NCBI GenBank assembly: GCA_003694525.1
Contig: RFLK01000086.1
Location: 1-27,333, forward strand
From: Candidatus Woesearchaeota archaeon
GTDB lineage: Archaea; Nanobdellota; Nanobdellia; Woesearchaeales; ARS49
Direction of reading: 5' to 3'
DNA length: 27,333 nt
A program made the translations under genes and the position numbers. Each line of letters starts with the position of its first letter. Positions within the stretch are counted from its first letter, which is position 1. Positions 10,939-16,069 of the stretch are shown in pieces. Below the pieces are notes generated by a model. It worked only from the letters and a program-made list of their open reading frames with translations, was not told the DNA's origin and made no database searches.

Positions 10939-12006
10939 TTAGAATAATCCAAGGACTTTTTTCTTTCCTGCTTTCTCGAACTGTTCTATTAGCTCTTTTT
11001 GTTTTTTTGTGAGTTTTTTGGGGACTTCTATGCTGATTTTTGCTATGATATCTCCTCTTCCTCTGCCTCTCAGCTTTGGAAGGCCTCTGCCGGGAAGTCT
11101 CAATTCGCTGTTGTTCTGAGTGCCTTCTGGTATTCTTATATGCTCTTTTCCTTCAAGAGTGTCTATTTCTACTTCGCCTCCAAGGCAGGCTGTTGCAAAA
11201 GGCAGCTCAAGGTCAAATCTAAGGTCTGCTCCGTCCCTCTCAAAGCGCTTGTCCTCTCTGACGTGTACTGTTATGTATAGGTCTCCTGACGGCGCGCCCA
11301 TCTCTCCTGCCTCTCCTTCTCCTGAGAGCCTTATTTTCATTCCGTCGTGTATTCCTGCAGGAATCTTGACCGATATTGTGTCTCTCTTGCTCAGGCGACC
11401 CTCTCCTGTGCAAACTTTGCAGGGATCTTTTGCAACTGTTCCTATGCTTTTGCAGGTCTTGCAGGGAGTTGTTGTTGCAAAGACTCCAAAGGGGGTTCTT
11501 CTCGTCTGTTGAACATAGCCTTGTCCTGAGCAAGTCTGGCAAGAGGAGATATTCTTCCCTCCTCTTCCTTTGCACTCATCGCATTTTGTCAACTTTCTGA
11601 TTGTTATCTCTTTTACTGAGTCTTTTGCAATATCTTCAAGGTTTACTGTTATGTCTACTGCAATGTCTCGTCCTGCGCGGGGTCCTCTGCGTTGCGAGAA
11701 GCCGAATCCTCCGAATATGTTGTCGAATATGTCTTCAAAATTGAATCCTGAGGCAAAGTCCCTGAAGTCAAATCCTGAGAATTGCTGACCTGCGCCTGCT
11801 TTTCCGAATCTGTCGTATTGTTCTCTTTTTTGGGGATCGCACAGTACTGCCGCTGCTTCGTTTATTTTCTTGAACTTCTCCTGCGCATCGGGGCTCGAGT
11901 TTAGGTCTGGGTGGTACTTTTTTGCAAGCTTTTTGTACGCTTTTTTTATCTCTTGCGCGCTTGCATCTTTGGGCACGCCCAGTATTTCATAATAGTCTTG
12001 ACTCAC
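10939..12006 (-). CDS. dnaJ: Chaperone DnaJ
   Basis: J-domain with HPD, G/F-rich linker, four CxxCxGxG-type zinc motifs (the third is CKTCKSIG) and the C-terminal domain. GTG start. Confidence 0.97.
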
Positions 12007-12179
12007 TCAAACCGACCTCTCACCTTGTGCTCATCGCTCTCAAGAATTCTTTTTATTTCTTGTTCTGCTGATTTTATCATCTCGCGAGCTCTTCTTGCTT
12101 GTTTGTAGGTGTAGAGGATTGCAAGAAGTCCTGCAATTCCTGCAACACCTGCAAGGGCTGAGCTTGTCGATGCAATCAT
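12003..12179 (-). CDS. 58-aa single-TM microprotein between dnaK and dnaJ
   Basis: Not in the ORF track. [58 protein letters not shown]. Its ATG overlaps the dnaK stop (ATGA) and its TGA overlaps the dnaJ GTG (GTGA). Confidence 0.8.
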
Positions 12180-14026
12180 GCCTTCTCGCCTTCTATTGTC
12201 TCATCGCTCCCTGTAGCCTTTGAGTTTTCACGCTTCTCTTGGCTCTCTTGAGATTTTCCAGCGCTTGCAGCGCTCGCGTACATTTTCTGCGCTGCTGCGT
12301 GAAGAATCTTTTCGCATTCTGCAAGCTTTTCTTTTATTTTTGCAAAGTCCTTTTTCTCTTCTGCAAGGAGTTTTTTGAGCTCGTCTCTTTTGGTTTTTAT
12401 CTCTTCAAGCTGGCTCTCATCTACTTTGCCTTTAAACTCTTCAAGTTGTTTGTCGAGTGTGTAGACAAGAGTGTCTGCTTGGTTTATGGTCTCTATCTCT
12501 TCCTTGCGTTTTTTGTCGGCCTCTGCGTTTTGTTCTGCTTCCTTTCTCATTCTCTCAACTTCTTCTTCAGAGAGCTTGTTTGGAGCAGTTATCTGTATGC
12601 TTTGTTCCTTGTTGGTTCCAAGGTCCTTTGCTTTAACTTTAAGGATTCCATTCGCATCTATATCGAATGTAACTTCTATTTGAGGCACTCCTCTGGGCGC
12701 TGGAGGTATTCCGACAAGGTCAAACTGGCCGAGGATCTTGTTGTCTGCAAACATTGCTCTCTCTCCTTGGGCAACTCTTATCGTTACGGCTGGCTGGTTG
12801 TCCGCTGCCGTGCTGAATACCTTGCTTTGTTTTACTGGAATTGTTGTGTTTCTCTCTATGACTTTTGTAAAGACTCCGCCGAGAGTCTCTATGCCTAAAG
12901 AGAGTGGAGTGACGTCAAGCAACAGGACATCCTTTATTTCTCCTGCAAGAACGCCTCCTTGTATTGCAGCGCCTGATGCTACGCATTCCATCGGATCTAT
13001 TGATCTTTCGACTTTCTTTCCGACCCACGTCTCAACGCTTTTTTGAACTATTGGCATTCTTGTAGGCCCGCCTACCAGTATGACTTTGTCTATGTCATTT
13101 ATGCTCAATTTGGCGTCTGCTATTGCCTGGTCTATGCTCTTTCTGCACCTTTGCACTATGGGGTCGACGATCTCTTCAAGCTTTGCCCTTGTCAGGGGTA
13201 TGTGCAGGTTTACAGGGCCTTCCGGAGTGGATGCTATGAACGGAAGGTTGATCTCTGTTTCAAATACTGTTGAAAGCTCTATTTTTGCTTTTTCTGCAGC
13301 TTCGCGAAGCCTCTGCATTGCAGTGTTGTCTTCGTTAAGGTCTATTCCGCTCTCTTTCTTGAAGGTTTCAACAAGGTAGTTTATTAGAGCGTTGTCCATA
13401 TCAGTGCCTCCAAGTTCTGTATCTCCGCTTGTCGAGACCACTTCAAACACTCCTTCTGAGAAGTCCATTATTGTTACATCAAGTGTTCCGCCTCCAAGGT
13501 CAAAGACTAATATTTTCTGTTCCTTGTCTGACTTGTCAAGTCCGTAGGCAAGCGCTGCTGCTGTCGGCTCGTTGATTATTCTGACAACCTCAAGCCCTGC
13601 GATTGTTCCTGCGTCTTTTGTCGCTTGTCTTTGGTTGTCATCAAAATATGCCGGCACTGTTATGACTGCTTTGTTTATTTTTTCTCCAAGAAACGCTTCA
13701 GCGTCCGCTTTTATTTTCTGTAGTATGAATGCGCTTATCTGTTGTGGTGTGTATTCTTTTCCGTTTATCTTGTATTTGAAGTTTGTTCCCATCTTTCGCT
13801 TTGCAGCGTAGACTGTGCCTTCCGGGTTTGAGACTGCTTGTCTTTTTGCAGGCTCACCAACAAGCACTCTGCCGTCTTTTGTAAATGCAACATAGGACGG
13901 GAATGCTTTTCCGTAAAGTGATGCTCCTTCTGCAGAGGGTATGATTTTTGGTCGTCCTGCTTCAAGAACGCTTGCTGCGCTGTTGCTGGTTCCAAGGTCT
14001 ATTCCGATGATTTTTTCTTTTGCCAT
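12176..14026 (-). CDS. dnaK: Chaperone DnaK (Hsp70)
   Basis: [59 protein letters not shown] and [14 protein letters not shown]. It lacks the roughly 23-aa N-terminal insert of proteobacterial DnaK. Confidence 0.99.
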
Positions 14027-14622
14027 TATTCCTTATCCTCCGTATTTTCTTCTTTCTGTTTTTTTGTTTGTTCTTCCTGCTTTTTTGGTTTCTTTTTCTT
14101 TGCTATAATGACTTTTGAGTATCTGATAACCCTTCCATTCATAGTGTAGCCTCGCTGTATTTCTTCTATTATTGTGTCTTCGGGTTCATCGCTCTCTTTT
14201 GATAGTATGACTTCGTGTTTGAATGGGTCGAACACTTGTCCTATTGCTTGTATTGGTTCTACCCTCTCTTCTGATAGTATTTTTTTGATGTTCTTGTGAA
14301 TCATCTCGATGCCTGAGCGCGCAGCTGGGGGAAGGGGTTGGTTGAGTGCGCGCTCAAGGTCATCGTAGATGTTTATCAGCTTGAGTAGTATTCGCTCTGA
14401 CGCTCTGCTTGCAAATTCTGAGCGTTCGCGTTCTGTTCTTTTTGCAAAGTTCTGGTATTCTGCGTGAATTCTTTGCAATTGTTCTTTGTATTCTTCGGCT
14501 TGCGTTTTGTGTTCTGCAAGGTCTGATTCAAGCTTTGCGATTCTTGCTTTGAGGTCTTCACTCTCGCAGTCGGGCTGTTTTGTCGAGTCCATTCCTGCTT
14601 GAGTTTTATTATTGGTTTTCAC
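14026..14622 (-). CDS. grpE: Nucleotide exchange factor GrpE
   Basis: [13 protein letters not shown] coiled coil, FDPFKHEVI and [19 protein letters not shown], with a K/E-rich tail. The stop overlaps the dnaK ATG (TAATG). Start is uncertain: GTG 14622 has a GGGGTGA SD; 14634 and 14592 are alternatives. Confidence 0.95.
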
Positions 14623-14644
14623 TTGCAAAATCACCCCACATTTA

Positions 14645-14661
14645 GTAGACTTTAAGTCTAC
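14645..14661. promoter_or_regulatory. Perfect 8-1-8 inverted repeat GTAGACTT-T-AAGTCTAC, candidate operator of grpE-dnaK-dnaJ
   Basis: Seen directly. It begins about 25 nt downstream of the grpE TATA box, at the expected transcription start. Confidence 0.65.
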
Positions 14662-14685
14662 AAGGTAGTCTTGGAAAGCTACAAG

Positions 14686-14702
14686 TATTTAAATATTTCG
14701 CT
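14686..14702 (-). promoter_or_regulatory. BRE + TATA promoter of grpE-dnaK-orf58-dnaJ
   Basis: Minus strand reads AGCGAAATA-TTTAAATA. Confidence 0.75.
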
Positions 14703-14708
14703 TAAAAT

Positions 14709-14723
14709 AGAAAGGTTTAAATA
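14709..14723 (+). promoter_or_regulatory. BRE + TATA promoter of the DUF3467-wHTH-HD operon
   Basis: AGAAAGG-TTTAAATA, 31 nt upstream of ATG 14755. SD AAGGTGA at 14745-14751. Confidence 0.7.
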
Positions 14724-14754: not shown

Positions 14755-15105
14755 ATGGCTCAAGTAAACATGAATATAATCGAAGGAGAACCCTTCTTTG
14801 CTCACGAGGCAAGCATCAATTTCACGCCAACGCAAGTTTCTTTGGATTTTAAGTGCATAACGCCCCGCACAGATCCGAGATCTCAAAAGCCTTCTTTTCA
14901 GCTAAAGCACAACGTTGTAATGATTGACCCTTGGCACGCAAAAGAACTCATAGGTGTTTTAAGAGAGGCTGTTAAGAAGTACGAGGAAGAGTTTGGATCA
15001 ATCAAAAAGCCGAAGGCAGTTTTGAAGGCAGAAGAAAAGCAACGCGCTCTTGCCCAGCAGGCAGGAGATAGCAAGACTGCAAAATACCCCACTTATACAG
15101 GATGA
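14755..15105 (+). CDS. DUF3467-like protein, 116 aa
   Basis: FFAHEASINFTPTQVSLDF...VMIDPWHAKELIGVLREAVKKYEEEFGSI matches the DUF3467 pattern (mxPxhAKxL..L...i..YE..fGxI) by recognition. SD present. Confidence 0.75.
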   Translation: MAQVNMNIIEGEPFFAHEASINFTPTQVSLDFKCITPRTDPRSQKPSFQLKHNVVMIDPWHAKELIGVLREAVKKYEEEFGSIKKPKAVLKAEEKQRALAQQAGDSKTAKYPTYTG

Positions 15106-15500
15106 TCAGAAAAATAACCATTTGCAGTGTGAACAGGCCCCCGAGGTGTTCTGTAAATGATGAGCTCCAATGGCTTGCAAACGCTTTGGGGTTGTTTGGA
15201 GAGCGCGATCGTAATCGCTCGCGCTTTCGCATATTCGTTGAGTTGATAAAAACATCACGCACAAAGAGCGGTTTGACAAGCGACGAGCTTGCCCACCGTC
15301 TCTCGCTAACACGTCCCACTGTTGTTCATCACTTGAACGGGCTTCTTGAGCAGGGTCTCATAATTCACAGGTCAAACCGTTATGAGATGCGCGCTCAAAG
15401 GCTGCAGGAGTTGATAGAAGATCTGCGAAAGGATATGGAGCGCGCATTGGATGAGGTTAAGCAATCTGCAAGAGAGCTTGACAAGGTGCTTGGATTATGA
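15102..15500 (+). CDS. Winged-helix regulator (ArsR/TrmB-like) with a C-terminal coiled coil, 132 aa
   Basis: LTSDELAHRLSLTRPTVVHHLNGLLEQGLI HTH, followed by the heptad-rich LQELIEDLRKDMERALDEVKQSARELD. ATGA overlaps on both sides. Confidence 0.87.
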   Translation: MIRKITICSVNRPPRCSVNDELQWLANALGLFGERDRNRSRFRIFVELIKTSRTKSGLTSDELAHRLSLTRPTVVHHLNGLLEQGLIIHRSNRYEMRAQRLQELIEDLRKDMERALDEVKQSARELDKVLGL

Positions 15501-16069
15501 CTGAGGTAATTGAAGAGGGCGAATTCAAGAGCGAAAGGGTTCAACAGGCTCTCAGGATCGCGCAAGAGGCGCATGCTGGCCAATTCAGGCGTGATGGCAA
15601 AACTCCGTATATTGAGCATCCAAAGGCGGTTGGCAGAATTTTGGAGATGTCAGGATGCGATGAGGATACCATAATTGCAGGCCTGCTTCACGATACAATT
15701 GAAGATACCGATTTGACGCTCGAGCAAGTGAAAGATGTTTTTGGAGAGCGCGTTGCGCTTCTTGTTGACAGCGTCTCAGAGCCTCCTCAAAGCACCCATT
15801 CTTGGAAGGAGCGAAAAGAGCATACTCTAAGGACGTTGAAGGTTGCGCCCAAGAGTGCTGTTATGGTTGTTGCAGCAGATAAGGCCCATAATTTGCGCTC
15901 TTTGAGGACTGCTTTGGATTCTGTTGGTGAATCAATGTGGATGCGTTTTCACGGCTCAAAAGATCTCCAGAAGTGGTATTATGAAGAGATGGCAAAAGTT
16001 ATTGAGATGAGGCTAGGGCAATCTCCCATAATCGATGAAATTAAGGAACACATCAAGCACTTGTTCTAA
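15497..16069 (+). CDS. Stand-alone HD-domain protein of the RelA/SpoT hydrolase (SAH / Mesh1-like) family, 190 aa
   Basis: AHAGQFRRDGKTPYIEHP, GLLHDTIEDT and AADKAHNLRSL. No synthetase domain. Confidence 0.88.
   Translation: MTEVIEEGEFKSERVQQALRIAQEAHAGQFRRDGKTPYIEHPKAVGRILEMSGCDEDTIIAGLLHDTIEDTDLTLEQVKDVFGERVALLVDSVSEPPQSTHSWKERKEHTLRTLKVAPKSAVMVVAADKAHNLRSLRTALDSVGESMWMRFHGSKDLQKWYYEEMAKVIEMRLGQSPIIDEIKEHIKHLF

Follow-up and report, generated by a model that had tools for sequence, protein, structure and literature searches.

We analysed a 27,333-nucleotide stretch of DNA from a Candidatus Woesearchaeota archaeon (contig RFLK01000086.1, assembly GCA_003694525.1), hereafter the window, in which a bacterial-type Hsp70 operon faces a gene for a small winged helix-turn-helix (wHTH) protein that we examine here as a candidate repressor of that operon. 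On the plus strand, three open reading frames (ORFs) encoding a DUF3467 protein, the wHTH protein and an HD-domain protein are joined by ATGA stop/start overlaps at 15102-15105 and 15497-15500. On the minus strand, and head-to-head with this trio, lies grpE-dnaK-orf58-dnaJ. Both arrangements are as a preliminary description of this DNA had reported (Table 1). ATGA overlaps are common in compact genomes. The spacer between grpE and the DUF3467 gene, given in that description as roughly 130 bp, measures 120 bp if grpE starts at GTG 14634 and more if the in-frame starts at 14622 or 14592 are used, so the estimate was fair. The source assembly comprises 705 kb in 105 contigs and is 73% complete; the sequencing runs that carry the locus come only from the source hot-springs metagenome, with no RNA run listed. 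Close homologues of both the DUF3467 and the wHTH protein are labelled Candidatus Woesearchaeota.

The spacer contains a perfect palindrome, which we call O1, and two TATA-like boxes inverted to each other. Each box is preceded by a sequence resembling the transcription factor B recognition element (BRE), and the two predicted promoters form an inverted pair (inverted repeat I1); back-to-back TATA boxes are also present in orthologous loci. O1 begins 24 nt past the TATA box of grpE and therefore covers the predicted transcription start of grpE. Archaeal TATA boxes are centred near -26, which places this start at about 14660-14665, at the edge of the palindrome. A degenerate second copy of the palindrome, the candidate auxiliary site O2, stands between O1 and the TATA box, and second half-site pairs resembling O2 occur between TATA and O1 in three other loci (L026, L046, and L050). 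Within a single genome, such features are not statistically remarkable: the pattern GTAGA-N7-TCTAC is found once in the 705-kb assembly, as O1, against about 0.7 occurrences expected by chance. Significance can come only from comparative data.

Table 1. Positions of genes, predicted promoters and palindromic sites in the window (strand is left empty for the palindromic sites).
Feature	Position	Strand	Remarks
DUF3467 gene (116 aa)	14755..15105	+	Pfam family; Hsp70-locus accessory (probable)
wHTH regulator gene (132 aa)	15102..15500	+	DnaK-type clade of an uncharacterised DPANN family; putative repressor at O1
HD_4 / RelA-SpoT hydrolase-only gene (190 aa)	15497..16069	+	HD and ED motifs present
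Predicted target operon grpE-dnaK-orf58-dnaJ	10939..14634	-	head-to-head with the DUF3467-wHTH-HD trio
grpE	14634-14026	-	Pfam GrpE, E 9e-42
dnaK	14026-12176	-	
58-codon ORF (orf58)	12179-12003	-	between dnaK and dnaJ
dnaJ	12006-10939	-	
Putative operator O1	14645..14661		perfect 8-1-8 palindrome GTAGACTTTAAGTCTAC; local variant of GTTGAYTT-N-AARTCAAC
Candidate auxiliary site O2	14665..14682		degenerate second copy, GTAG-N10-CTAC; between O1 and the grpE TATA box
Predicted grpE promoter	14686..14700	-	TATA TTTAAATA (14693-14686), preceded by BRE-like CGAAATA (14700-14694)
Predicted DUF3467-wHTH-HD promoter	14709..14723	+	BRE-like AGAAAGG and TATA TTTAAATA

The wHTH gene and its position beside the chaperone genes are widely conserved. 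An orthologue, 37-59% identical over the full length, was found in 52 of 61 related genomes; these include 31 of the 36 genomes of the same family, and most other families of the order are represented. DnaK is present in 58 of the 61 genomes, and the three that lack it also lack the wHTH gene. We compared 51 non-redundant DnaK-type loci by tblastn with the window's proteins. The wHTH gene, or the DUF3467-wHTH pair, diverges from grpE in 39 of them, and the arrangement is thus not unique to this genome.

These loci also share a DNA site. We counted k-mers and inverted repeats with short spacers across the intergenic regions without a preset pattern, and the sole motif recovered was the 17-bp palindrome GTTGAYTT-N-AARTCAAC. 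We counted 35 copies of its strict core, GTTGA-N7-TCAAC, within the 20,086 bp that lie upstream of DUF3467/wHTH and 3 copies in the remaining 254,102 bp of these loci, an enrichment of about 150-fold. The three remaining core sites are found farther upstream of DUF3467 (in L008, L010, and L013), and the one in L013 adjoins grpE. Although the search pattern placed no constraint on positions 8 and 10, position 8 is a T in 35 of 36 sites and position 10 is an A in all 36. When the 36 loci were aligned on the palindrome in the chaperone direction, a BRE-like cgaaAg was followed by TTTAWATA and then by a spacer with a median length of 24 nt (24-25 nt in 29 of the 36 loci). On its 3' side, the palindrome is followed within 3-20 nt by a ribosome-binding site of the GGTG type and the grpE or hsp20 start codon. 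The spacer in the window, with its 24 nt between TATA box and palindrome, conforms exactly to this layout.

The site accompanies the regulator even where the regulator and chaperone genes are not neighbours. First, in genome G043 the regulator gene lies 24 kb from the chaperone genes, and just two core sites are present genome-wide, one before hsp20-grpE-DUF3467-dnaK and the other in the wHTH gene's own promoter, 4 nt past its TATA box. Second, among eight further genomes with an unlinked regulator, seven have a high-scoring site directly upstream of grpE or of an hsp20-dnaK operon. Third, G001 and G003, both 100% complete, possess DnaK but no detected wHTH gene, and no site was found before their hsp20-grpE-dnaK genes. 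The link between protein and site therefore appears to be independent of gene adjacency. Across five near-complete genomes, sites that match the inner consensus in full are confined to the grpE/hsp20-dnaK and regulator loci, which suggests that the regulon is small and local.

We also noted variations in which genes follow the palindrome. In several lineages hsp20 is the first gene of the operon and the palindrome precedes it, in the order hsp20-grpE-(DUF3467)-dnaK (L094:1657-2106, L027, L050, L150, L152, and L156). A DnaK-type GTTGA palindrome is likewise found about 24 nt after the TATA box of some hsp20 or groES promoters (L113, L115, L125, and L127), so that the DnaK-type regulon may extend to hsp20 or groES in those genomes.

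A conserved palindrome in a predicted 5' leader, just before the ribosome-binding site, could instead act as RNA, either as a leader hairpin or as a thermometer, with the wHTH protein regulating something else. The window's leader does fold somewhat better than shuffled sequence (z -2.2), but its minimum-energy fold does not contain the palindrome hairpin, and the palindrome does not cover the ribosome-binding site. Moreover, the outer bases are fixed in sequence, not merely paired, and at the inner arm positions the two sides can pair in fewer than half of the sites (44% at position 6 and 42% at position 7). Fixed letters together with unpaired inner positions fit a protein-binding site rather than a stem. 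The same site also stands on the regulator's own promoter in G043, between TATA and start, and it disappears together with the regulator gene. We therefore give the RNA reading almost no credence and treat the palindrome as a probable operator; from its conservation, its position and its co-occurrence with the wHTH gene, we infer that the wHTH protein binds it.

The protein itself has the features of a small DNA-binding regulator. It matches Pfam HTH_20 (35.1 bits; cut-off 27) and HTH_5 (25.7 bits; cut-off 22), as an ArsR-like winged helix. A metal-sensing role finds no counterpart in the sequence, as NCBIfam HTH_metalloreg reaches 24 bits against a cut-off of 55 and Cys 7 and Cys 16 are not kept in the orthologues. 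A conserved N-terminal ELQW-x4-LGLF-x2-RD motif precedes the winged helix, and a 30-residue helix forms the C-terminus. The structural model, with a predicted local distance difference test (pLDDT) score of 89, is a generic wHTH with flanking helices whose matches are of the MarR, ArsR, AbfR2, and TrmBL2 types. Relatives fall into 4307 metagenomic clusters at E <= 1e-5, and public records label the protein only as a "winged helix-turn-helix transcriptional regulator."

Within this family, the DnaK-type branch is a clade with a Shimodaira-Hasegawa-like approximate likelihood-ratio test (SH-aLRT) support of 99. The window's genome carries a paralogue, 26% identical, on another contig (C100:4342-4752; L054:3540-3953; L106), where it diverges from groES-groEL. 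Of the 30 best order-wide loci of the paralogue branch, 27 diverge from groES-groEL, hsp20(-cdc48), or cdc48, with the neighbour identities checked against Pfam: 13 face groES-groEL (3 via hsp20), 13 face hsp20 (followed by cdc48 in 5), 1 faces cdc48, and 3 have no identified neighbour. The two branches are homologous over their full length (hhalign probability 100%, E 9e-42) and share the N-terminal W-x4-LG(L/F)-x2-RD, the winged helix and the long C-terminal helix. By these comparisons the family has at least two branches, one beside grpE-dnaK and one beside groES-groEL, hsp20, or cdc48, and this genome has one member of each. Since the regulator and its paralogues each adjoin chaperone operons, the family looks like one of chaperone-operon repressors. 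A GAAA-N3-TTTC-like element recurs between the back-to-back TATA boxes of paralogue loci (L106 and L120-L122) and may be the paralogue's own site, lying upstream of both TATA boxes.

Taken together, we consider it likely that the product of 15102-15500 is a winged-helix protein that acts as a dimer and is dedicated to repressing the adjacent bacterial-type Hsp70 operon. The preliminary description had proposed that the wHTH protein represses this operon through O1, and the comparative data point the same way: the gene pair, the palindrome and the TATA spacing are conserved throughout the order, and the site co-occurs with the regulator even when unlinked. We suggest the following mechanism. 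At normal temperature, the repressor would occupy O1 and perhaps also the weaker copy O2. With the palindrome over the start, TATA-binding protein (TBP) and transcription factor B (TFB) could bind while RNA polymerase would be kept off, as Phr blocks polymerase recruitment from a site at the transcription start (PMC9133787). Under heat or protein-folding stress, the repressor would come off the DNA and grpE-dnaK-orf58-dnaJ would be transcribed. Release might result from an intrinsic thermolability of the repressor or from its titration by chaperones.

We also weighed whether the wHTH protein activates the divergent promoters or has a dual function there, since the sign of regulation, like the stress signal, is something we infer. 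In the window, O1 is on the upstream side of the promoter for DUF3467-wHTH, as binding sites of archaeal activators are, and paralogue loci have a different repeated element between their two TATA boxes. Relative to the chaperone operon, however, every site follows the TATA box and falls on the predicted start, where known archaeal repressors such as Phr also sit (PMC9133787). For this reason, we regard activation as very unlikely and retain repression as the probable mode.

Several observations weigh against a repressor acting at O1. Consensus and spacing are the sole basis for the predicted promoter elements and transcription start. O1 stands 55 bp ahead of the TATA box that serves DUF3467-wHTH, which leaves autoregulation unclear in the window, and it departs from the consensus on both arms, with A/T at positions 3/15 where the consensus has T/A. 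Across the relatives, the strict site is missing from about one-quarter of DnaK-type loci, some of which have degenerate sites while in others the contig ends too early. In six genomes DnaK is present but no wHTH gene was detected, so there the regulator is dispensable or has been replaced. Finally, the 61 genomes are relatives and not independent samples. With regard to the deviation at positions 3/15, both arms carry C/G in genus g9, and one-arm deviations occur in several loci. This looks like the least constrained of the outer positions, at which changes are tolerated; it does not prove that site and recognition helix have co-evolved, and the events at position 3 (the A in the window, the C in g9 and the one-armed variants) were too few to reveal whether they have.

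The second conserved gene of the locus encodes a DUF3467 protein (Pfam PF11950; 36.9 bits against a cut-off of 25). The family exceeds the Pfam cut-off in 53 of the 151 genomes of the phylum and occurs in 40 of the 61 relatives. The structural model (pLDDT 82) shows a four-stranded sheet and a long helix, followed by a Lys-rich and probably flexible linker. After this linker, the C-terminus reads Tyr-[FLMIY]-Gly in every DPANN DUF3467 protein examined (15088-15105 in the window; L061-L090). A profile search returned 1929 representative clusters, and among the distant representatives most end in Tyr-x-Gly and some do not. Foldseek searches of the PDB and of Swiss-Prot models returned no match with E below 0.05, and neither a PDB sequence search nor an ESM Atlas feature search gave a useful match. 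A wide VIA structure search returned weak matches to COMM-domain, PUR, and PC4-like proteins (Z 4-5.5), which may reflect a common beta-beta-beta-beta-alpha arrangement and no more. No match of the SecB or small-heat-shock type stood out, so the comparison with chaperone folds put forward in the preliminary description yielded no chaperone fold among the matches (best Z about 5).

That description had cast DUF3467 as the regulator's partner or sensor. On this view DUF3467 would be an anti- or co-repressor, and the three genes would form one stress-control module. Some features are in keeping with this proposal. DUF3467 lies directly upstream of the wHTH gene in 26 loci, mostly of the window genome's family, with frames that often touch or overlap. 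Through varied layouts, including those in other orders of the class (L066, L085, and L086), DUF3467, the wHTH gene and grpE-dnaK stay within one 3-kb neighbourhood, and the invariant Tyr-x-Gly on its flexible linker resembles a docking peptide. The expected co-occurrence beside grpE/dnaK was borne out in that the two genes often share a neighbourhood, but not in that 14 of the 52 genomes with a regulator lack DUF3467 and 2 genomes have DUF3467 and no regulator. In addition, DUF3467 belongs to the chaperone transcription unit in at least 15 loci, either between grpE and dnaK or before grpE; the groES- and hsp20-type paralogues have no DUF3467 gene within about 1.5 kb; and other DUF3467 genes stand beside transcription factor E, PspC-like genes or virus-like runs of ORFs. 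A complex prediction with two wHTH chains and one DUF3467 chain scored 0.00 against a mark of 0.32 and gives no verdict either way. We conclude that a partner or sensor role is unlikely: DUF3467 follows the Hsp70 locus rather than the regulator.

An alternative is that DUF3467 helps the Hsp70 machine as a co-chaperone, adaptor or client mimic, independently of the regulator. About 35 of the 40 genes among the relatives are within 1.5 kb of grpE or dnaK, and this holds over four gene orders: DUF3467-wHTH divergent from grpE, as in the window; grpE-DUF3467-dnaK; DUF3467-grpE-dnaK divergent from the wHTH gene; and wHTH-grpE-DUF3467-dnaK in one direction. Set against this, G019 (97% complete) has DUF3467 and no detected DnaK, many of the more distant DUF3467 genes do not adjoin chaperone genes, and the weak fold matches described above include no chaperone fold. 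We hold the helper role as a tentative reading. More firmly, DUF3467 is probably a co-inherited and co-regulated accessory of the Hsp70 locus, and the regulator can exist without it. A bolder version, which we think doubtful, would make DUF3467 a fourth component of prokaryotic Hsp70 systems, whose linker and Tyr-x-Gly tail dock on DnaK, GrpE or the repressor and report chaperone load, giving a titration-type feedback loop built from parts without known relatives.

Outside the Hsp70 locus, DUF3467 genes have other surroundings. In one family of the order, the gene lies between a zinc-ribbon gene and the gene for transcription factor E (Pfam TFIIE_alpha; L071, L077, and L079). A distant DUF3467 gene in L163 sits within a run of about 25 small co-directional ORFs without a Pfam hit, which looks like a virus or mobile element. 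Seven contexts of distant DUF3467 genes, on archaeal, virus-like or too-short contigs, included no neighbouring DnaK gene.

The third gene of the trio appears to be of local origin in this arrangement. Its product matches HD_4 (76.8 bits; cut-off 27.2), with the motif LLHDTIEDT in the translation, and aligns with positions 1-123 of the 687 positions of NCBIfam TIGR00691, that is, with the N-terminal hydrolase part and no synthetase domain. This genome is the only one in which the HD gene is next to the regulator; in G022 it is 0.6 kb downstream of the regulator. Stand-alone HD orthologues are few, lying elsewhere in the genome in G011 and G004, and none was found in the rest of the relatives. 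The ATGA overlap implies that the HD gene is co-expressed with the regulator here. Adjacency in a single genome gives no support to the idea that the HD enzyme links the system to a nucleotide signal, and it agrees with the caveat, also voiced in the preliminary description, that the gene may be a local passenger. By its distribution, the HD gene is a lineage-specific passenger in the operon. Separately, open frames of about 640-760 aa that start with a RelA/SpoT-type HD domain are present in nine genomes (G049, G052, G058, G050, G043, G047, G060, G048, and G038; L141, L142, L144, L145, and L147), and long RelA/SpoT-homologue-like proteins thus seem to exist in several Woesearchaeales genomes. 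For the 58-codon ORF that separates dnaK from dnaJ, tblastn gave a 44%-identical match 3' of dnaK in only one other examined locus (L025:6693-6827), its short length limiting detection.

The locus matters because it offers a testable pair, a 132-aa protein and a 17-bp site. To our knowledge, how archaea control Hsp70 and GroEL systems derived from bacteria has not been established. If our reading is correct, the regulator would, together with its sister regulators beside groESL, hsp20, and cdc48, represent a family-wide proteostasis control system of DPANN archaea, and DUF3467 is marked as a candidate uncharacterised companion of Hsp70. A full-text literature search found no paper on DUF3467 function, on archaeal grpE/dnaK repressors or on DPANN chaperone regulators; the one paper that mentions DUF3467 is unrelated.

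Among known systems, the small alarmone hydrolases (Mesh1/SAH) resemble the HD protein of the window, which has HD_4 with HD and ED motifs, about 190 aa and no synthetase domain, its hydrolase role being read from sequence. The HD gene is, however, not conserved among the relatives at this locus.

For the regulator, the nearest functional parallels are Phr of Pyrococcus furiosus and HSR1 of Archaeoglobus fulgidus, which a 2022 review gives as the only archaeal heat-shock transcription regulators identified (PMC9133787). Like them, the window's protein is a small wHTH with a C-terminal helix, with a palindrome over a heat-shock gene start (here by predicted position) and probable autoregulation. 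Phr and HSR1 also control hsp20 and cdc48-type AAA+ genes, the kinds that adjoin the paralogue branch. There are also differences. The window's protein is shorter (132 aa against 202 aa), and its predicted target is a bacterial-type Hsp70 operon. The HSR1 site is CTAAC-N5-GTTAG, whereas the site here is GTTGA-N7-TCAAC. The Phr structure (2P4W) matched the paralogue profile at E 0.34 over 35 residues, was absent from the single-sequence and DnaK-type profile match lists, and was not in the top 50 structural matches (Foldseek and VIA), being no better than a generic ArsR or MarR wHTH. As far as sequence can tell, the likeness to Phr is functional only.

The best profile match is ST1889 (2D1H), an Lrs14-like protein (E 2e-7), and AbfR2 and the TrmBL2 N-terminus match the full-length structure, with a wHTH and a long C-terminal helix. 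Membership of the Lrs14/Sta1/AbfR group does not follow: the NCBIfam scores for Sta1 (28.2 bits against 80) and Lrs14 (24.7 bits against 90) are both far below cut-off, and the N-terminal ELQW...LGLF..RD is specific to the family of the window's regulator.

The bacterial HrcA/CIRCE system likewise combines a dedicated repressor gene by grpE-dnaK, control of groESL (here via the paralogue) and an inverted-repeat operator between promoter and start codon. Unlike the 9-N9-9 CIRCE element, the operator here is 8-1-8, and the promoter is of the archaeal TATA/BRE type. The HrcA domain (PF01628) had no match in the three proteins or in the 73%-complete assembly, and no CIRCE-type 9-N9-9 repeat was found before the chaperone operon, where the only conserved repeat is the 8-1-8 GTTGA-type palindrome. 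With no specific relation to Phr detected and no HrcA domain, the putative regulator would resemble Phr or HrcA in its action, yet it cannot be assigned to the family of either. The putative repressor family and its site are new, whereas the proposed mechanism, a repressor placed on the transcription start, is conventional.

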